DNA of 64,000 bases from Pseudomonadota bacterium (GTDB lineage: Bacteria; Pseudomonadota; Gammaproteobacteria; Xanthomonadales; SZUA-38): positions 1,629 through 65,628 of the forward strand of contig JBCCVP010000009.1 in assembly GCA_039195135.1 (NCBI GenBank), written 5' to 3'. The notes beneath the pieces were generated by a model. That model made no database searches. It was not told the DNA's origin and saw nothing but the letters and a program-made list of their open reading frames with translations. Every line of letters begins with the position of its first letter. Positions within the stretch are counted from its first letter, which is position 1. Made by a program: the position numbers and the translations under genes. Shown piece after piece: positions 2,762 to 41,776 of the stretch.

Positions 2762-5725
2762 ATGAATCAGTCGGAACTGCTACGGGAATGTGTTGAAGAG
2801 TTCAAACGGCTGGCCGGTGCCCGCCATGCCAGTGTCGCGATCCACCTTTCACCCCTGGAGCGGCGATCACTTTTCGTCGCGGAAGCGGGCGCCGGCCCTG
2901 CCGTGGCTGAGCTGCAGGACGAGGCCACGGCCTGGGCGTTTATCAGCGCGCGGGACGTGGACGATGGTGATGCCCCGGTCGTCAGCGTGGTTCCGGGGAA
3001 AGAGGCCGGAACGACGCTGGTGCGCGTTGCGTTCCACGAGCTCCTGCCCCAGCCATCCTCGGAGCGGCGGGATGGACGGGAACGGCGACTTGATCCGGTG
3101 GTGCGAACGGCGCTGCCGCGAGATGGTGCGTTGTGGATCGGGCTGCGGGACGCCAGCGATGTGTCGGCGCTGGTGGGGGATCTCAACCCGGAAACCGCCT
3201 TCACCGATTCCGACCCCGTCCTCCACCGTTTGACCAACCTGTGCTGCCGGCTTGCGTTCAGCGTGTACTACCTGTCGACGCTGACGCTTGATCCGGTAAG
3301 CCAGCTGGCTGGCCGCACCCACCTGCAGGACTTTCTGCGCCGCGCGGTCAGCGCGCTTAAGCAAAGCGAACAACCGATCGCCCTGCTGCTCGTCACGGCG
3401 GACGATTTCGCCATGATCAACTGCCGCCACGGGCGGCAATTCGGTGACCAGGCGATCAGGGAGATCGCCGAGCGTTTGGAGTCCACGCTGCGCAGCACGG
3501 ACGGATTGTTCCGCTACAACGGCGCGGCGTTTGCGGTCGTGCTGCCCGCTACCAACCCCAGCCAGGCCCGGGCCACGGCAGACAAGCTGAGAACGCGGCT
3601 GGTGGGGCAGGGATACCTGGAGGAACAGCTGCCACTGACCTTCAGCATGGGCGTAGCTGTGGCAACGCCGGAAGAACTTCAGCATTGCGAAGACGCTGAG
3701 ACCGCCCTGTTCCGGCATGCCGATACGGCGCTGAACAGCGCCCGGCTTTCCGGCGGTGCTCAGTGCTGCGTGCTGTCGTTGTCGGACGAAGATGCCCCGG
3801 CCCACGGCAATCCGCTGAACGGCGTGTTTACCGCCGACACGGAAAAAGACCACCGCAACATGCTGCTGCTGTGGGATACCGTCACGCTGGTTTCCAGCGT
3901 GCCCGAGCCGGCCCAGATGGCGAGCCGGTTTGTCGAGCGGATCGCCAGCGTATTTCGCCCGGAGCGGGTGGCGCTGCTGCGCCCCGCTGAAGAGGGCCTG
4001 CAGACGGTGGCCAGCAGCCTGCGGGATGACGCCCGTCCCGACGGCCGGATCACGGGGCGCCCGATCAAGCTGAAGTCGAGTCACGCTGACCTGGTTACCC
4101 AGGCGATCGACACGCGGCAGGTGGCCCGGTCACGCACGGAGCAGGGCGCCGCGGCGTCGCGGGTGGCCTACGCCGTGCCGCTGGTTTCCGGCGCCGCCAG
4201 TCAGGGCTGCCTGTTCCTGGAAGTGCGGCGGGACACGATCAAGGTGGACTCAGCGGACGTGGTGTTTCTCAATGCGCTCGCCTCGCAAATGGCGGTCGCC
4301 ATGGAGCGGGCGGAGCTGGCGTCCCGGCAGTTTGAGGAAAAGGACCGGGAAAGCCGGTCCCTGCGAAGAGAGGTGCGGGGTCTTAGGCAGGCGCTGAAGC
4401 ACAGCCGCATGGTGTATCAATCCCAGGCGATGCACGAGGTGATGCAGCTGCTGACCAAGGTAGCGCCCACCGACGCGACAGTGCTCATCATCGGGGAAAG
4501 CGGCACCGGCAAAGAGGTGCTGGCCCGCAGCGTGCACGAGCTTAGTGACCGCCGAGAAGCGCCGTTTGTGGTGTTTGACTGTGGTGCGGTGGCCCCCACG
4601 CTGCTGGAGGCAGAGTTGTTCGGCCACATCAAAGGCGCCTTTACCGGCGCTGACAAAGCGTCCGAAGGGCATATCGCCCGGGCCGCCGGGGGCACCCTTT
4701 TTCTGGATGAAATTGGTGAATTGCCGCTCGGTATTCAGGCCAAGCTGTTGCGCTTTGTGCAGGAAAAAGAATTTGCCCCGGTGGGCAGCGCGAGCACCCG
4801 GCAGGTGGACGTGCGGGTGGTGGCGGCGACCAACCGCCGACTTGAGGACGAAGTGGCCGGCGGCCGCTTTCGCGCGGACCTTTACTACCGCCTGCGGGTG
4901 ATTGCGGTGGACGCGCCACCGTTGCGTCAGCGGCCGGAAGACATTCTGCCGCTGGCCCACTACTTCGTGGAAAAGTACGCGGTGCAGCACGGCCGGCCGG
5001 TCAGCGACCTGACGCCGGCGGCGCAGCAGAAGCTGCAACAGTATGCGTGGCCTGGCAACGTTCGGGAGCTCGAAAACAGCATCCTGCGGGCGGTACTCAC
5101 CCACGGCGACGGTCCGCTGGACGCCGCGGCGATCGAGCTGGAAACGGAAGGCCGCGCGCCGGTCGGCGCACCGGTCGCGGCGGTCTCGCCCCTGGCCCTG
5201 CCGCCCACCGCCATGCACGGCGGTCACGTCGCTGCTGACGCGGCGGTGATGCCGCCGCCGGTGGACCCCTGGGGGTCGCTGCAGGCGGAGCTTGAGCGAC
5301 AGGTGGAGCTTGCGGTGGCGGACGACGGCCGCCGTCCGGTGCCCCTGGGGCGCTGGCTGAATGAAGATCTGATCCTGCAGGCCAGCGAGGCCTGCGACAA
5401 CGTGGCGCGCCGCGCTGCGAGCCTGATCCAGGTGCCGGAGTCGACGTTCCGCCGACACTTGGACAAGGTGCACACCGGCGTCGCCAATGGCGGCCTGTTT
5501 CGCACGGATCACTGGAGCCCGGTCCGGCCGCTGCTGCGGCGGCTGATTGAGCAGGCGGACGCGGAGAGCGACAGCGGGCACAGCCTGCTGGAACGTTCCC
5601 GCTCCACGCTGCTGCGCTGTGTCCGGTCCCGGCTCGACGGACGCGCGTCCACTGCCGCGTCCCTGATGGGGGTAACGCCGCTGACCTACAAACGTTGGCT
5701 CAGCGAGCAGGAGGAAAGATCATGA
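2762..5725 (+). CDS. sigma54-dependent enhancer-binding protein: N-terminal region, degenerate GGDEF, GAF-like, AAA+, Fis-type HTH
   Basis: ATG at 2762 (MNQSELL), 10 nt after the HDOD stop. The AAA+ domain has GESGTGKE, GAFTGA and LFLDEIGE. The C-terminal HTH is ASLMGVTPLTYKRWL. The GGDEF-like block reads RSTDGLFRYNGAAF. Confidence 0.9.
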   Translation: MNQSELLRECVEEFKRLAGARHASVAIHLSPLERRSLFVAEAGAGPAVAELQDEATAWAFISARDVDDGDAPVVSVVPGKEAGTTLVRVAFHELLPQPSSERRDGRERRLDPVVRTALPRDGALWIGLRDASDVSALVGDLNPETAFTDSDPVLHRLTNLCCRLAFSVYYLSTLTLDPVSQLAGRTHLQDFLRRAVSALKQSEQPIALLLVTADDFAMINCRHGRQFGDQAIREIAERLESTLRSTDGLFRYNGAAFAVVLPATNPSQARATADKLRTRLVGQGYLEEQLPLTFSMGVAVATPEELQHCEDAETALFRHADTALNSARLSGGAQCCVLSLSDEDAPAHGNPLNGVFTADTEKDHRNMLLLWDTVTLVSSVPEPAQMASRFVERIASVFRPERVALLRPAEEGLQTVASSLRDDARPDGRITGRPIKLKSSHADLVTQAIDTRQVARSRTEQGAAASRVAYAVPLVSGAASQGCLFLEVRRDTIKVDSADVVFLNALASQMAVAMERAELASRQFEEKDRESRSLRREVRGLRQALKHSRMVYQSQAMHEVMQLLTKVAPTDATVLIIGESGTGKEVLARSVHELSDRREAPFVVFDCGAVAPTLLEAELFGHIKGAFTGADKASEGHIARAAGGTLFLDEIGELPLGIQAKLLRFVQEKEFAPVGSASTRQVDVRVVAATNRRLEDEVAGGRFRADLYYRLRVIAVDAPPLRQRPEDILPLAHYFVEKYAVQHGRPVSDLTPAAQQKLQQYAWPGNVRELENSILRAVLTHGDGPLDAAAIELETEGRAPVGAPVAAVSPLALPPTAMHGGHVAADAAVMPPPVDPWGSLQAELERQVELAVADDGRRPVPLGRWLNEDLILQASEACDNVARRAASLIQVPESTFRRHLDKVHTGVANGGLFRTDHWSPVRPLLRRLIEQADAESDSGHSLLERSRSTLLRCVRSRLDGRASTAASLMGVTPLTYKRWLSEQEERS

Positions 5726-10403: not shown

Positions 10404-10684
10404 AACGGCGACGCCGTGAAGCAGAACGGGGCAGGTATTCCATGTGCTGGAGATCAGGAAGTTGCGTCATTGACCCGGGAGCTCAACATAGGAATGCAAG
10501 GCGGCATCCCAGGGCAGGGAAATGGACACAGTCGCCGTGCATGCGACGTGTCACAGACGCGCTTCAACGGGTTGGAGCAGTTCAATAGCTGCAGCCCAGA
10601 CCAGATGGGCCGGCGGGTGGCCCGGGCCAGCTGCCTGGTGGACGACGGGCGGTTCCTCTTCTCCGACGGTTTCGAATCCGACGG

Positions 10685-11194
10685 CTAAAGCCGCAGCTCC
10701 GAAACGAGTTGTTCTGCCCAGGTTGCAATACGTTCGCCGGTCAAATCCGGCTGGTGGAGTTCGTCCAGAGCCAGGCCAACAAACTTTCCGTTGACCACCC
10801 CTTTTGATTCGGTGAAGTTGTAATTCTCCGTGGGCCAGTGGCCGATGTCGGCGCTGGCGCCCCGGGCAAGAAATCGGTCCCGCAGAATTCCCATAGCGTC
10901 CTGAAAGTTATCGGGGTAACCGAATTGATCACCGTCGCCAAAAAACGCCACCTGGGTGCCTGCGAAATTCACGTCATCGAATTGTCCGAGAGCACGCGCC
11001 CAATCTTCCTGAAGTTCACCGATGTCCCAGGTTGGAATGCCGACCAGCAGCACATCGAACCCGGTCAATTCGTCCAAAGCCAGACGCTCGACGCTGAGCA
11101 CATCCTGCACGTGCGTTTCGAGTTCGTCGAAAATGGCCTCGGCGGCCTCTTCGGTATTGCCCGTGGTACTTCCAAAAACAATCCCGATCCTCAA
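10685..11194 (-). CDS. fldA: long-chain flavodoxin
   Basis: MRIGIVFGSTTGNTEEAAE... is the canonical flavodoxin FMN-binding N-terminus. Length is 169 aa. Confidence 0.9.
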   Translation of the reverse strand: MRIGIVFGSTTGNTEEAAEAIFDELETHVQDVLSVERLALDELTGFDVLLVGIPTWDIGELQEDWARALGQFDDVNFAGTQVAFFGDGDQFGYPDNFQDAMGILRDRFLARGASADIGHWPTENYNFTESKGVVNGKFVGLALDELHQPDLTGERIATWAEQLVSELRL

Positions 11195-11228
11195 TTCCTG
11201 TCACTCCGCACGGCTAATAGGTGTAAAC

Positions 11229-11247
11229 GATAATGATTATCATTATA
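11229..11247. promoter_or_regulatory. Fur box
   Basis: GATAATGATTATCATTATA matches GATAATGATAATCATTATC at 17 of 19 positions. It lies 35-53 nt upstream of the flavodoxin start. Confidence 0.8.
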
Positions 11248-11413
11248 CTTAACACCCGGAACTCGCACAACAGGAATCGGGAGCGGGATTAAACCGGGAT
11301 TCTGGTACTAGGTGACCCACAGGCGTAAGTCAGCTACTCAAAAGCGGGAAAGAGATCTGATATCACTCACGTGCTTCCGACCTGGCACTTGGTCCTGGAC
11401 CCTAGGATTGCGG

Positions 11414-38448: not shown

Positions 38449-39015
38449 TCAGTTGATCCGAAATCGACTCTCCTGACTTACCTGCGCCTTAAGGAATGCC
38501 ATCTGGTCGGCCAGAATGCGTCGATTCGACAGAATCAGTCCTTCCGCCACGTTCGGGACATACGGGATCGCGAGCAGCTTCATGCGCAGTTCGCTGAGCA
38601 GTCTGCTGCCTTTACGCTGATTGCAGGCGCGGCACGCTGTCACCACGTTTTCCCAACGATCTCGGCCGCCTCGAGCTACGGGAATCACGTGGTCCCGGGT
38701 GAGCCAGGCCGGCGGCAGCACCTCCCCGCAGTACAGACACATGTGCCGATCCCGCTGAAACAGGCGCGCGTTGGTCAATGCGGGTACATCCCGTTGTTTC
38801 CGCCCGTTCCGGTTCCGGAAACGGGTCGCGACAATCGTATTCAGGTCCAGCCGAGACCGCTTCCCGGTCGCCCGCGAAACGCCGCCGCGCAGGCACAAGG
38901 TCGCTGCGCCGGCCTCCCAGGCGACCCGGTCCAGGCAGTACAGCGTGGCGCACTGCTCCCGGGTCAGCCAGCCCAGCGGCAGGCCGGCAATATCCAGTTT
39001 TAAAATCCACACCAT
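38449..39015 (-). CDS. HNH endonuclease family protein (188 aa)
   Basis: CLYCG...LTRDHVIPVARGG...WENVVTACRACNQRKG. AAGGAG RBS at 39028-39023, 7 nt before the ATG. Confidence 0.85.
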   Translation of the reverse strand: MVWILKLDIAGLPLGWLTREQCATLYCLDRVAWEAGAATLCLRGGVSRATGKRSRLDLNTIVATRFRNRNGRKQRDVPALTNARLFQRDRHMCLYCGEVLPPAWLTRDHVIPVARGGRDRWENVVTACRACNQRKGSRLLSELRMKLLAIPYVPNVAEGLILSNRRILADQMAFLKAQVSQESRFRIN

Positions 39016-39020
39016 CGTTT

Positions 39021-39052
39021 TGCTCCTTGAGAATGTGGATGTGTGAAGGGCC
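39021..39052 (-). repeat. 3' arm of the long-range stem (inverted copy of the boxA/GU-rich leader segment); contains the HNH Shine-Dalgarno
   Basis: The plus strand TGCTCCTTGAGAATGTGGATGTGTGAAGGGCC compares with the reverse complement of 40805-40836. The core 16/16 match is at 39032-39047. About 27 of 32 positions can pair, counting one G-U. Confidence 0.7.
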
Positions 39053-39057
39053 TTGAT

Positions 39058-39135
39058 TGGTAGCCGCCCTCGGACTCGAACCGAGAATCGCCTGTTTCTG
39101 AAACAGGCAGGTATGCCAATTCCCGTCAGACGGCT
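39058..39135 (-). tRNA. tRNA-like gene, anticodon CAG (Leu) on a class I scaffold with a weak D-stem; CCA encoded
   Basis: T-arm CTCGG-TTCGAGT-CCGAG. Acceptor AGCCGTC/GGCGGCT with A73. Anticodon arm CCTGT-TTCAGAA-ACAGG. The variable loop is only 5 nt. The D-loop GAATTGG is Leu-like, but only 2 of 4 D-stem pairs form. Confidence 0.55.
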
Positions 39136-39142
39136 TTGTTTG

Positions 39143-39213
39143 AGACGCTGCCCGGATTCGAACCGGGATTTGAGGATTTGCAGTCCTCCGCCTTACCCTT
39201 CGGCCACAGCGTC
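39143..39213 (-). tRNA. tRNA-Cys (GCA)
   Basis: Clean cloverleaf. Anticodon loop CTGCAAA, U73 discriminator, G13-A22 mismatch as in other tRNA-Cys. CCA is not encoded. Confidence 0.85.
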
Positions 39214-39223
39214 GTTCCAAAAG

Positions 39224-39299
39224 TGGACCGCCTGGAGGGACTCGAACCCCCGGCCTGCCGGTTCGTAACCGGCTGCTCTTCCAGCTGAGCTACAGACGG
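39224..39299 (-). tRNA. tRNA-Arg (ACG)
   Basis: 76 nt canonical cloverleaf. Anticodon loop TTACGAA, A20 present, CCA encoded, unusual C1-G72. Confidence 0.85.
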
Positions 39300-39303
39300 T
39301 AGT

Positions 39304-39378
39304 TGGTTTGAACCATCGGACTCGAACCGATATCTCCAGGGTCACGACCTGACGCTTTACCCTTAAGCTAGGCTCAAC
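39304..39378 (-). tRNA. tRNA-His (GUG)-like with encoded G-1, A73 and C33
   Basis: All four stems form well. The anticodon loop TCGTGAC has C at position 33. G precedes U1. CCA is encoded. Confidence 0.65.
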
Positions 39379-39424
39379 ACCGTGGGAGCCCGAAGAGTTG
39401 TCAAATCCCTGGCTCCGAAAAAAT

Positions 39425-39502
39425 TGGTCTGAAGGGCTGGATTTGAACCAGCGACCCCTCGGTTCCAAACCGAGAACTCTGACCAGACTGAGCTACCTTC
39501 AG
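39425..39502 (-). tRNA. tRNA-Pro (UGG)
   Basis: Canonical cloverleaf with C1-G72 and A73. Anticodon loop TTTGGAA. CCA encoded. Confidence 0.88.
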
Positions 39503-39545
39503 CTTTCGCAGCGTCGGGGCTGTTTGCTCCCGCCGCTGCCCATGT

Positions 39546-39621
39546 TGGTAATCCGGACAGGATTCGAACCTGCAATCTCGAGGTTGAAGGCCTCGCGGCT
39601 TAACCATTCGCCTACCGGATC
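39546..39621 (-). tRNA. tRNA with anticodon UUC (Glu) on a non-Glu-like scaffold, C33
   Basis: Exactly 76 nt in canonical numbering. The anticodon loop CCTTCAA has C33. There is a G1-U72 wobble and A73. The body does not resemble gammaproteobacterial tRNA-Glu. Confidence 0.6.
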
Positions 39622-39628
39622 AAAAAAC

Positions 39629-39703
39629 TGGCGCTGCGGATCGGGCTTGAACCGACACCTGCTGGATCGACAATCCAGTGCTCTAACCTTGAGCTACCGC
39701 AGC
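39629..39703 (-). tRNA. tRNA-Asp (GUC)
   Basis: Canonical cloverleaf. Anticodon loop TTGTCGA, G73, CCA encoded. Confidence 0.88.
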
Positions 39704-40048
39704 GGATAGAACGGCTGAGACTAGGCCGTTGCCAATCACCCTTTGACGGGATTACCCAGCACCTGCCGGCGCCGGTTGCCCGCGTGTCCACGCTCAACCG
39801 GCGGGCGCCGGCTTGAACGTAGGCGATCATGACTGCCTTTTTTGGAGTGTGGCGACTCACTCATCGCGCGTGTCTAGTCAGCAGTTTGCGTACCGTGAGC
39901 CTCGCGGGCTCCAAATAGGGGCTACCCAACCGTGCGGCGCACCGCCAAAGCCTTCTCTGCTTGCGGCATCGAAGGCCACCGGATTGTCTTGCGACTCCGG
40001 CCTTAAGCCACTTTCGACACGAACTGAGGCGCGTCTTTGCGTTTGCTA
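39704..40048 (-). ncRNA. ORF-free, tRNA-punctuated spacer of about 345 nt; candidate structured RNA of unknown class
   Basis: No credible ORF on either strand. Many local GC-rich hairpins, for example AAGGCCGGA...TCCGGTGGCCTT and CGCCGGTTG...CAACCGGCG. It is bounded by a tRNA-like element and tRNA-Asp. Confidence 0.3.
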
Positions 40049-40118
40049 AAGCATGTGCCGGACTCGAACCGGCTATCTCGATCTTGAGTCGAACGCTCTC
40101 CCGTTGAGCTACATTGCA
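40049..40118 (-). pseudogene. degenerate tRNA-like element, anticodon CAA
   Basis: Good D-arm (TAGCTCAACGGGAGAGC), anticodon arm (TTCGA-CTCAAGA-TCGAG) and T-arm (GCCGG-TTCGAGT-CCGGC). The variable loop is only 3 nt, the acceptor stem has 5 bp plus a bulge, and there is no CCA. Confidence 0.45.
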
Positions 40119-40596
40119 TCCCACTGCGACGTGCACGCCTCAGTCGCTTCATAGCCTTTTGGGCCACAAAATACGACACGCCGAATGCCTTTCGCCTGCC
40201 GGCTACTGAGCCGAATGTTCGGGACGCCGGCTCCACACCAGAACCCCGGACCTCTGGGCTGACGCGCTCGCTCGCAAAGCTCGCACTTTTCGCCCTATCC
40301 GTTACCCCTCACGGTTGACGATGTTGGTTTCGCGGGGTGCACCACCACGTGGTCTTTCACTGACCTGCATTCCCGCCCCGCCGTGGCGGTTAGGTGCATC
40401 AATCAGCTACTTCCGCGCATCGCTTGGCCGCTATCTCTGCCGAAGCAAAGACGAGGAGGCCAGACTTGCCTGGACTGACCGAGCTGCTGCTCGGCGAAGC
40501 GCCATGGGGACACTCCTTTCCCGCCGTTACCGACGGTTATCGACGCCAGGCCGCCAAGGCCGATCCCGGCCAGGCCGGTAATCGGACATTCCTAAC
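40119..40596 (-). ncRNA. ORF-free, tRNA-punctuated spacer of about 480 nt; candidate structured RNA of unknown class
   Basis: It lies between tRNA-Asn and the tRNA-like element. Only Arg/Pro-rich shadow ORFs are present. It is GC-rich with many hairpins, for example GAGCCG-N14-CGGCTC. Confidence 0.3.
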
Positions 40597-40672
40597 TGGC
40601 TGGCACGGCAGGACTCGAACCTGCACCACCCCGCTTAACAGGCGGGTGCTCTACCGTTTGAGCTTCGTGCCA
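40597..40672 (-). tRNA. tRNA-Asn (GUU)
   Basis: 76 nt. Anticodon loop CTGTTAA, U1-A72, G73, CCA encoded, unusual A8. Confidence 0.8.
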
Positions 40673-40673
40673 G

Positions 40674-40749
40674 TGGTGGATCGGGTTGGCGTCGAACCAG
40701 CAACGCGCCGGACTTCACCCGGCCGCTCTACCACTTGAGCTACCGATCC
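40674..40749 (-). tRNA. tRNA-Phe (GAA)
   Basis: 76 nt. Anticodon loop GTGAAGT, A73, CCA encoded, one C-A mismatch in the T-stem. Confidence 0.75.
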
Positions 40750-40804
40750 AGAAAACTCGCCGGGACCTCCCGCGTCGGGCACAAAACCACGTCGACCGGG
40801 CACC

Positions 40805-40836
40805 GGCATTTCACACATCCACATTGTTAAAGAGCA
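40805..40836 (-). promoter_or_regulatory. boxA (TGCTCTTTAACAA, 40836-40824) plus a GU-rich boxC-like tract; 5' arm of the long-range stem
   Basis: The minus strand reads TGCTCTTTAACAATGTGGATGTGTGAAATGCC. The first 13 nt are identical to the E. coli rrn boxA consensus. Confidence 0.7.
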
Positions 40837-40839
40837 CAG

Positions 40840-40882
40840 CCAGGGCACAAAAAAGCCCTGGTCAGTTGGTACCTGCCAGGGC
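40840..40882 (-). promoter_or_regulatory. boxB-position hairpin overlapping an alternative terminator-like hairpin
   Basis: The minus strand reads GCCCTGG-N14-CCAGGGC-TTTTTTGT-GCCCTGG. The middle heptamer can pair with either flank. Confidence 0.55.
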
Positions 40883-41112
40883 TTCACTTGCGTTTTGTCC
40901 TGAAAGGTCCGGTTTCTCGAGCCTTCCAGAACAAATGTCTGGAGGCTTTACCGCATCGGCTCACCATGGCGAAGGCAAAATGCATTCGCGCGCCGGCCGC
41001 GGTCATTCACGGGGCGCAGGTCAAGCATCTGCGTCGCACACAAACGGGCAGCAGCGTCTTTGACGCGCGCCGGCGTTTGAGCAGCGGTACTGATTGAGTT
41101 AGAAAATTGCAT
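40883..41112 (-). other. transcribed leader (about 230 nt) between the predicted TSS and the boxB/boxA elements
   Basis: Position is inferred from the promoter at 41147-41120. There is no convincing ORF. Confidence 0.4.
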
Positions 41113-41119
41113 GCCGGGG

Positions 41120-41147
41120 AGTATACGCCGGAAGAACGCCGTGTCAA
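41120..41147 (-). promoter_or_regulatory. near-consensus sigma70 stable-RNA-type promoter
   Basis: TTGACA (41147-41142), a 16 bp spacer, TATACT (41125-41120), then the GC-rich discriminator CCCCGGC. Confidence 0.7.
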
Positions 41148-41150
41148 CAC

Positions 41151-41190
41151 GTGAAATGAATTAGTATTCATTCGAAATGAATTTATTTGA
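41151..41190 (-). promoter_or_regulatory. AT-rich UP-element-like tract containing AATGAAT / ATTCATT / AATGAAT heptamers
   Basis: About 75 percent AT in a GC-rich genome, immediately upstream of the -35. GAAATGAAT occurs at 41153-41161 and 41174-41182, with the inverted ATTCATT at 41166-41172. Confidence 0.5.
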
Positions 41191-41230
41191 GGCAAATGCG
41201 ACCGCAGCGCCCGGACTCCGGTTTGCTACC

Positions 41231-41776
41231 TCAGCTGTCCGCCGCAGGCAAAAGCGCGGCGGTAGGTTTTGTTGGCGTGAGGGTGACAGCGACGCGTTGC
41301 TGGCTCGGGCTGCGGCGGGCAGAAAACTCCAGCGCCTGTTCATCCGGCGCTGCGCCAAAGAGGTTAAACGAGAGCGTCATCTCGCCCTCGGGGTTGTTGA
41401 GGGCATACCGGCCCATCGCCACAAGCTGAGAGCTGGGTGCGCTGGACGTGTCATGGGCATGGGCCGGTGAAAGCAGCAGGCCTTCAAGTGCGCAGGCACC
41501 TCCCGCATCGGACAGCACCACTCGCTCGATGACGGCCGCGGCGATAGCGTGCTGATGGCGATGGAATTCTTCGGTGGAGAGGCGACCGTCCTGATCATCG
41601 TCCACGCCGGCAAACGCGCTAACGGGGATGGAGACGACCAGATAGGCCCCGTCGTCGACCACGTTCAGCGTGCCCCGCTGGGCGGCCATGGGATGAGCCG
41701 CTGCCCCGGTGCACACCAGCGACAGAAGTAGACCCGCAACCGGCGAGGCCAGGGTTGAAGTTCTGAACGACCGCAT
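41231..41776 (-). CDS. secreted His-rich protein with a single EF-hand-like Ca-binding loop
   Basis: The signal peptide ends AAA|HPM, which predicts an N-terminal His. The loop DDDQDGRLSTEEF fits the EF-hand consensus. HRHQH and HAHD clusters are present. The start overlaps the upstream stop (TGATG). Confidence 0.6.
   Translation of the reverse strand: MRSFRTSTLASPVAGLLLSLVCTGAAAHPMAAQRGTLNVVDDGAYLVVSIPVSAFAGVDDDQDGRLSTEEFHRHQHAIAAAVIERVVLSDAGGACALEGLLLSPAHAHDTSSAPSSQLVAMGRYALNNPEGEMTLSFNLFGAAPDEQALEFSARRSPSQQRVAVTLTPTKPTAALLPAADS

Follow-up and report, generated by a model that had tools for sequence, protein, structure and literature searches.

A tRNA operon interrupted by nearly 900 nucleotides devoid of any evident gene raises the question of whether this space is empty or encodes an RNA and, in the latter case, whether it encodes one or several. 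The window, i.e. the whole stretch of DNA analysed here, comprises 64,000 nt of a contig from a Pseudomonadota bacterium. ARAGORN delineates in it a dense tRNA operon at 40749-39058 of the minus strand, with the order tRNA-Phe, tRNA-Asn, a gap of 893 nt (40596-39704), tRNA-Asp, Glu, Pro, His, Arg, Cys and Leu, so that nine tRNAs and one tRNA-like element lie within 1.7 kb. The original prediction placed two ORF-free RNAs in the gap, on either side of the tRNA-like element (40119-40596 and 39704-40048). The coordinates and the ORF-free status of both parts were borne out by ARAGORN, by the Rfam tRNA model and by Pfam, since the six longest ORFs overlapping the gap have no Pfam match at E<=0.1. 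These overlapping ORFs measure 77-114 aa, on either strand, and a protein-coding origin of 39704-40596 was rejected in view of the missing Pfam matches. Taken as a whole, the data are best explained if the gap is a complete 893-nt GOLLD RNA gene on the minus strand, carried as cargo by a small operon of accessory tRNAs, itself apparently acquired horizontally, and we hold this explanation with high confidence. The features are collected in Table 1.

Table 1. Features of the GOLLD-containing tRNA operon in the window
Feature	Position	Strand	Basis and remarks
Candidate sigma-70-like promoter, TTGACA-16 nt-TATACT	41120..41147	-	11/12 consensus matches; sole match in 3.2 kb of sequence
boxB-like hairpin with U-rich loop, CAGGGC-UUUUUUGU-GCCCUG	40841..40860	-	Read from the sequence; just 5' of boxA
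Leader-trailer helix, 5' arm (predicted)	40805..40845	-	41-nt inverted repeat; holds boxA and a GU-rich boxC-like stretch
boxA, TGCTCTTTAACAA	40836-40824	-	Exact 13-mer, identical to E. coli rrn boxA
tRNA-Phe(GAA) and tRNA-Asn(GUU)	40597..40749	-	ARAGORN, Rfam; directly 5' of GOLLD
tRNA-Asn	40597-40672	-	ARAGORN; borders GOLLD directly upstream
GOLLD RNA gene, complete, 893 nt	39704..40596	-	nhmmer conservation, covariation; fills the space from tRNA-Asn to tRNA-Asp
GOLLD 5' domain (~410 nt)	40187..40596	-	RNAalifold helices with compensatory changes; outside the Rfam model
Conserved hairpin opening the Rfam GOLLD model (positions 1-62; GGCGUGUYGUAUUU...CAAAAG)	40124..40186	-	cmscan alignment
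Variable linker	40025..40142	-	Closed by a 10-bp helix; unpaired in the Rfam consensus
tRNA-like element, anticodon-loop triplet CAA	40050..40117	-	Rfam tRNA model, 37.3 bits
GOLLD conserved 3' core (model positions ~141-416)	39709..40024	-	cmscan alignment; helices 28-43 of the 34-sequence test
tRNA-Asp	39629-39703	-	ARAGORN; borders GOLLD directly downstream
tRNA-Asp, Glu, Pro, His, Arg, Cys, Leu	39058..39703	-	ARAGORN, Rfam; directly 3' of GOLLD
Leader-trailer helix, 3' arm (predicted)	39012..39052	-	41-nt inverted repeat; downstream of the last tRNA, spans the HNH ribosome-binding site (AAGGAG) and ATG
HNH endonuclease gene, 188 aa, last of the cassette	38449..39015	-	PF14279 (5e-17), PF01844 (3e-13)

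Identity, conservation and structure of the 893-nt RNA

Among bacterial non-coding RNAs, GOLLD ranks with the largest, and it belongs to a family reportedly described by Weinberg et al. in 2009. It is usually presented as phage- or prophage-associated, which is a typical association and not a strict definition. An Rfam scan of the window at gathering thresholds, one of the checks proposed for this locus, returned tRNAs alone, and a GOLLD match appeared only in E-value mode. In that mode, model RF02032 aligns with 40186-39712 of the minus strand, over model positions 1-416 of 416 and without truncation, with 133.7 bits (E=1.9e-36 to 7e-37). The default Rfam scan misses the gene because this score falls 16 bits under the curated gathering cut-off of 150. 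This cut-off is a curation convention and not a biological feature, and the scores of the MAG relatives straddle it (L014, 153.5; L007, 144; L005, 139.7; L002, 126 bits), giving for the clade of the window a range of 126-153.5 bits. Five viral GOLLDs stand above it (L165, 214.6; L164, 206.1; L096, 201.2; L141, 181.9; L089, 156.9 bits), and an nhmmer profile made of five sequences (the window copy plus L007, L002, L005 and L014) bridges the clade of the window to these viral copies. This homology chain to copies that pass the cut-off settles the membership in the GOLLD family despite the sub-threshold score. The GOLLD of the window is a sub-threshold, chromosomal member of a known family, from an uncultured Pseudomonadota MAG. 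A new structured RNA class had been held possible, with a clear Rfam hit as the result that would speak against it, and the match at E=7e-37, though under the curated cut-off, is such a hit.

The comparison with GOLLD and ROOL RNAs suggested by the original prediction was the right call: GOLLD matched, whereas a permissive Rfam scan of 38500-41500 gave no ROOL match at E<=10. ROOL RNAs are likewise large, ornate, cage-forming and located near tRNA islands, but both sequence and structure in the window are of the GOLLD type. The window copy resembles RF02032 members by its full-length model match, its size of ~900 nt, a 5' domain less conserved than the conserved 3' domain, a variable linker in which a tRNA lies, and its position among tRNA genes. 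It differs from them by a score under the cut-off, a high GC content (~60%), a chromosomal location with phage genes not found within ~10 kb, and a degenerate inner tRNA. It belongs to a GC-rich GOLLD clade carried by the chromosomes of uncultured Pseudomonadota/Gammaproteobacteria MAGs, which goes unannotated because its members are mostly below the Rfam cut-off. In annotation practice, it follows that wherever a tRNA array contains a long, seemingly "empty" gap, a GOLLD scan with E-value thresholds is advisable.

Related loci were fetched via the adjacent HNH protein. With the full 893 nt as a query, nhmmer matched four Pseudomonadota/Gammaproteobacteria MAG loci (L007, L002, L005 and L014) over ~positions 12-891, so that the nhmmer check in related genomes envisaged at the outset returned full-length matches, and covariation with them. 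The alignment of the five sequences shows a mean column identity of 78% from one end to the other, and this covers the 410 nt lying upstream of the Rfam match. By profile search, at least 20 viral contigs of IMG/VR were found to carry GOLLD relatives, and some of these contigs measure 360-600 kb (~24 of 99 16-mer matches were genuine GOLLDs, the others being due to chance). Metagenome contigs were retrieved with a longer and more specific pattern from the conserved hairpin; all 61 of 61 were genuine and matched the profile, the majority with both domains and almost from end to end. The comparative set therefore comprises 61 copies from metagenomes, at least 20 from viruses and 5 from genomes.

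The minimum free energy of the 893 nt, -388 kcal/mol versus -368.8±9.0 kcal/mol for shuffled sequences (z=-2.1; reached by 0 of 20 shuffles), departs only modestly from expectation. What decides the matter is the comparative evidence, namely end-to-end conservation in other genomes and metagenomes and strong compensatory base-pair changes. RNAalifold on the five sequences yielded 250 pairs, 108 of which show compensatory changes. By pair counting on the same sequences, 96.3% of the cells are paired and double changes affect 111 pairs, compared to 44.9±4.8 in shuffled and 17-22 in slid controls. Since this structure was derived from the very alignment used for the counting, we projected it onto an independent set of 34 sequences, consisting of 29 non-redundant metagenome sequences plus the five (37-62% GC, 52% mean identity). 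On this set, 86.3% of the cells were paired, versus 35-42% in slid controls. Double changes were observed in 206 of the 247 pairs (157±5 shuffled, 125-153 slid) and in 1632 cells (533±23 shuffled, 333-509 slid), and the covariation score reached 0.534 (0.21 shuffled, 0.09-0.14 slid). None of the 500 shuffles attained any of the five measures. The dense structure noted in the original prediction is thus supported, together with conservation in MAGs and metagenomes.

Covariation supports helices in the 3' domain and equally in the 5' domain, which lies outside the Rfam model. In the 34-sequence alignment, most helices of the 5' domain are paired at 71-96%, with two weak ones at 56% and 69%; its first hairpin (40584-40561) is optional and is missing in L014. 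The inner stem of the conserved hairpin (40177-40143) is paired at 97.7% in the 34 sequences, and the 3' core includes a long-range helix between 40024-40016 and 39874-39866. Rfam models the 3' part only, and nhmmer of the clade profiles against the env-38 cryo-EM construct established no sequence link between the two 5' domains, yielding just an insignificant 19-nt match in the conserved hairpin.

Operon layout and genomic context

Ribosomal RNA operons carry boxB-boxA-boxC antitermination signals in their leader together with a leader-trailer (RNase III) helix. In its sequence, the tRNA operon of the window copies this layout. The rrn-type boxA behind the antitermination idea of the original prediction is indeed an exact match. 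Seven relatives have a sequence like boxA, with 0-1 mismatch; its distance to the first tRNA is ~100-110 nt in L002, L005, L008, L012, L014 and L015 and ~280 nt in L007, on the upstream side in each case. At the place of the boxB-like hairpin, 7 of 7 relatives have a comparable stem, rich in G and with a loop rich in U. The two arms of the inverted repeat are predicted to form a duplex of -53.8 kcal/mol. This predicted leader-trailer helix occurs in 8 of 8 loci examined, even with 1 kb inserted before the HNH gene, and over these 8 loci 10 of its 21 predicted pairs show compensatory changes, a covariation that shows the helix bracketing the array.

The resemblance to an rRNA operon leader thus extends to an exact boxA, a hairpin upstream, a GU-rich stretch downstream and a long helix enclosing structured RNA genes. 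The two differ in that the helix of the window encloses tRNAs and GOLLD instead of 16S rRNA, and in that its trailer arm overlaps the ribosome-binding site of a protein gene. A limited literature search found neither a paper joining tRNA arrays with antitermination nor a description of this operon layout, with its boxB-like hairpin, exact rrn boxA and covarying bracket helix over the HNH ribosome-binding site, which is weak evidence of novelty. One phage paper (PMC9025141) mentions a tRNA array as well as boxA.

In syntenic relatives (L002, L012, L014 and L015), the array holds 20-25 tRNAs in the same order as the reduced set of the window, the order in relatives being Thr-Tyr-Phe-Asn-(Ala)-[GOLLD]-Asp-Glu-Ile-Pro-... 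The slot of GOLLD in the array is fixed wherever the RNA is present. GOLLD is missing from six related loci, some of which have incomplete arrays, and L012 and L015 read Asn-Met-Asp at this place. A tRNA array unit is said to have been defined by Tran et al. in 2016 as 20 or more tRNA genes, numbering at least 2 per kb; the window, with its 9 tRNAs, stays under the first of these numbers.

The HNH protein that ends the cassette has homologues of 55-66% identity that follow tRNA arrays in Pseudomonadota/Gammaproteobacteria MAGs, and a homologue of 37% identity on a plasmid of Mycolicibacterium alvei, where it lies within an array of 27 tRNAs. Ralstonia phage RsoM2USA was considered as well, as it encodes a full-length HNH homologue, but tRNAs and GOLLD were not found nearby. 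Mycobacterium tRNA array units with GOLLD and an HNH endonuclease have reportedly been described by Morgado and Vicente (2018/2020), Behra et al. (2019, 2022) and Yano et al. (2026). They share with the window the tRNA array, a GOLLD with an internal pseudo-tRNA, a single homologous HNH (the 37% identity to the M. alvei plasmid protein) and flanks that differ from genome to genome, implying horizontal transfer. Unlike them, the window comes from another phylum, has a far smaller array (9 tRNAs) and carries the HNH gene after the array and not inside it. In mycobacteria, the association of tRNA array, GOLLD and HNH is documented (PMC6582537; PMC9569102).

Within ~10 kb of the window GOLLD, the genes encode a PQQ dehydrogenase, a racemase, an ECF sigma/anti-sigma pair, a LysR protein, dehydrogenases, a YHYH protein and regulators, and Pfam analysis of the neighbours revealed no phage or integrase domains over this distance. 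The surroundings are thus ordinary metabolic and regulatory genes, not those of a prophage. When the flanking proteins of the window were compared by tblastn with all related loci, no common neighbours were found. Vertical synteny of the cassette was rejected, as the flanking proteins are not common to any related locus, and this lack of shared neighbours indicates that the 2.7-kb cassette was inserted at different places. A gene for the RNA ligase RtcB adjoins the array or the HNH gene in L001, L002, L003, L014 (with RlaP) and L017; none was found near the cassette of the window.

With 9 tRNAs where relatives have 20-25 and with a degenerate inner tRNA, the cassette may be eroding. One could go further and propose that this horizontally acquired cassette is a dying relic whose GOLLD no longer functions in its host. 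The reduced but collinear array, the inner tRNA, the low scores of tRNA-Phe (45 bits) and tRNA-Leu (33 bits) with the Rfam tRNA model, and the missing RtcB, present beside several relatives, would fit such a scenario. However, the window GOLLD keeps 94% of the consensus pairs in its 5' domain and 98% in its 3' domain, which is as good as in its relatives, boxA is exact, the leader-trailer helix is intact and the HNH ORF is full length. We therefore regard a relic as unlikely. Since these pairs are kept, the GOLLD itself is not decayed, contrary to the decayed sequence that had been envisaged for the gap, and the decay within it is confined to the embedded tRNA.

The tRNA-like element and the unity of the RNA

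Cutting the gap at the tRNA-like element, as in the original prediction, would give two discrete RNAs. Our results argue for a single RNA, as the 893 nt are conserved in relatives as an undivided whole, the Rfam match crosses the element, and a covarying helix closes the linker that contains it. This 10-bp helix (40142-40133 with 40035-40025) is 98% paired with 2 compensatory pairs in the five sequences, and 93.8% paired with 6 pairs showing double changes in the 34 sequences.

The presence of a tRNA in the variable linker of GOLLD is already described in the literature. The element of the window has intact D, anticodon and T arms, but the 3' strand of its acceptor is 5 nt short, a deletion visible in columns 562-566 of the five-sequence alignment, and CCA is missing. 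ARAGORN, even with relaxed thresholds, called no sensible tRNA at 40050-40117. The homologous inner tRNAs of the four close relatives score 71 (L014), 65 (L005), 64 (L002) and 55 bits (L007) with the Rfam tRNA model and mostly encode an ACCA 3' end. Among the window copy and these relatives, the arms of the inner tRNA covary while the anticodon varies (CAA, CCA, CCA, CGC and TAG). ARAGORN calls an inner tRNA in 46 of the 56 metagenome GOLLDs that cover the linker, and none in the other 10. The 46 tRNAs have at least 18 different anticodons; forms rare or abnormal for bacteria are frequent across metagenomes, namely the anticodons ATG, ATT, ACA and CTA and loops of 6 or 8 nt. Thus, the shape of the inner tRNA is usually kept, its anticodon is unconstrained, and GOLLD is intact without a functional inner tRNA.

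If the embedded element were processed like the flanking tRNAs, the gap would give rise to two separate RNAs, of ~480 nt on the 5' side and ~345 nt on the 3' side, which would still be two GOLLD halves. The inner tRNA of the four closest relatives, with its 55-71 bits and an ACCA or ACC-like 3' end, does look processable, an inner tRNA is callable in most metagenomic GOLLDs, and the 5' and 3' regions form separate domains in the solved structure (PMC12286853). In the window, however, recognition of the element by RNase P is doubtful given its crippled acceptor stem, the missing CCA, its score of 37.3 bits and the ARAGORN failure. The linker-closing helix would moreover hold the halves together even if the RNA were cut, the cryo-EM cages were made from uncut chains, and the transcript of the pseudo-tRNA inside the Mycobacterium aubagnense GOLLD was not detected (PMC6582537). 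We consider two RNAs very unlikely and retain a single 893-nt GOLLD.

Two last readings have practically no chance of being correct. A structured RNA of a new class, without kinship to any known family, would agree with the tRNA-only result at Rfam gathering thresholds and with BLASTN, in which the 893 nt had no match among cultured phages and PLSDB plasmids and a 2-kb query matched tRNAs only, but it is refuted by the full-length GOLLD match and the homology chain to copies above the cut-off. Pseudogenised or small protein-coding genes, to which the overlapping ORFs of the gap could point, are effectively refuted by the missing Pfam matches, by indels among GOLLD relatives that are not multiples of three, and by substitutions that follow a base-pairing and not a codon pattern.

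Proposed expression and function of the cassette

Transcription from the candidate promoter would proceed through the boxB-like hairpin, boxA, tRNA-Phe, tRNA-Asn, GOLLD and the seven other tRNAs to the HNH endonuclease gene. As boxA is exact and conserved in position, we infer that, in the manner of rRNA operons, an antitermination complex of Nus factors and boxA would keep this long untranslated transcript from ending prematurely. The leader would then pair with the stretch that follows the last tRNA; the resulting helix of ~20-35 bp around the whole array, shown by covariation, may serve as an RNase III site and mask the ribosome-binding site of the HNH gene. RNase P and the 3'-end tRNA processing enzymes would free the flanking tRNAs. 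As tRNA-Asn and tRNA-Asp directly abut its two ends, GOLLD would have these ends set by tRNA processing, in keeping with the tRNA-punctuation arrangement proposed from the start.

Once released, GOLLD would fold into its two domains, with the secondary structure that covariation supports. Cryo-EM is said to have revealed in 2025 the cages of the env-38 and Streptococcus agalactiae GOLLDs, and a GOLLD cage consists of 10-14 chains. By analogy with these family members, copies of the window GOLLD probably join in a homo-oligomeric RNA cage whose interior receives the linker and its tRNA. Published work on the family indeed indicates that GOLLD forms RNA-only cages and that the tRNAs in its linker point into the cage (PMC12286853; PMC12990946).

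Accessory tRNAs, the HNH endonuclease and, in relatives, RtcB point to conflicts over the tRNA pool, and the most likely setting for the cassette is the supply or protection of tRNAs during an attack by a phage or a toxin on this pool. Several clues of the context would offer testable handles on function in such conflicts, namely the rrn-like leader and bracket helix, the array slot that is fixed with or without GOLLD, RtcB beside several relatives, and the unconstrained inner anticodon.

More tentatively, the cassette could be a self-contained mobile operon built on the logic of rRNA operons, with an antitermination leader and a bracket helix around the tRNAs and GOLLD, a hidden HNH ribosome-binding site, and a linker tRNA that is not an ordinary decoder. 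This possibility is doubtful for now, but if it holds true, HNH expression would be tied to the processing of the array, for which RNase III is presumably responsible. Finally, with its free anticodon, its rare or abnormal forms and its dispensability for the integrity of GOLLD, the linker tRNA would fit the role of a caged decoy or cargo in tRNA-targeting conflicts.

The GOLLD slot and the frame of the array

GOLLD is an optional cargo of a syntenic tRNA array, in which it occupies a single fixed slot between tRNA-Asn or tRNA-Ala and tRNA-Asp. In two Ca. Foliamicus chromosomes, a tRNA-Met replaces it in this slot (L012, 3812-4217; L015, 3004-3409), whereas the window carries GOLLD there (39704-40596). 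Three elements on the minus strand enclose the entire window array: an exact rrn boxA, the boxB-like hairpin before it, and a leader-trailer helix. This helix covaries, with compensatory changes in 10 of 21 pairs across eight loci (the window, the GOLLD-bearing MAG loci L002, L005, L007 and L014, and the related loci L008, L012 and L015). The sole terminator-like match in the region (39821-39838, plus strand) is a conserved GOLLD motif (AAAAGGCAGUCAUGAU) read in antisense, so it is most likely spurious and due to the folding of the RNA itself.

Positions of array-framing elements and of RNA ligase genes in related loci
Feature	Locus and position	Strand	Remark
boxB-like hairpin, exact rrn boxA, leader-side arm	window 40805-40860	-	leader of tRNA/GOLLD array
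3' arm of leader-trailer helix	window 39012-39052	-	overlaps HNH ribosome-binding site and start codon
RtcB	L001 133-1326		
RtcB	L002 6527-7975		
RtcB	L003 5-880		
RtcB	L014 9079-10275		plus RlaP nucleotidyltransferase 10598-11380
RtcB	L017 540-1742		

tRNAs of the array and of the GOLLD linker

With nine tRNAs, the window array (39058-40749) is a reduced form of the longer arrays of its relatives, which comprise 20-25 genes. Two of its members score low with the Rfam tRNA model, namely tRNA-Phe (45 bits) and tRNA-Leu(CAG) (33 bits). Between two array tRNAs of L002, positions 5000-5065 gave a weak, heavily gapped match to the tmRNA model (26 bits for a cut-off of 47) and are probably another tRNA-like element.

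The anticodon of the tRNA in the GOLLD linker is unconstrained across metagenome contigs (L183-L243), viral contigs (L081-L179) and the four GOLLD-bearing MAG loci. Among 46 metagenome copies, at least 18 anticodon types were observed, including ATG, ATT and ACA, all with A at position 34, as well as the amber anticodon CTA. Some copies have anticodon loops of 6 or 8 nt, and a callable inner tRNA is missing from 10 of 56 metagenome GOLLD copies.

HNH and RtcB genes near the arrays

The HNH domain of the window endonuclease (38449-39015; residues about 75-143) is weakly related in NCBIfam to those of IscB and Cas9d, at 43 bits, far under the cut-offs of those models. This likeness reflects a common nuclease domain only, and there is no indication of an RNA-guided system. 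A homologue with 37% identity lies mid-array among 27 tRNAs on the Mycolicibacterium alvei plasmid pJCM12272 (L182, 12377-24808), an array not displayed in the PLSDB gene table; GOLLD was not found within 6 kb of this homologue.

RtcB is an RNA ligase involved in tRNA repair. No RtcB gene was found across the 64-kb window; in five related loci, one lies beside either the HNH gene or the array of tRNAs, accompanied in one of the five (L014) by the RlaP nucleotidyltransferase.
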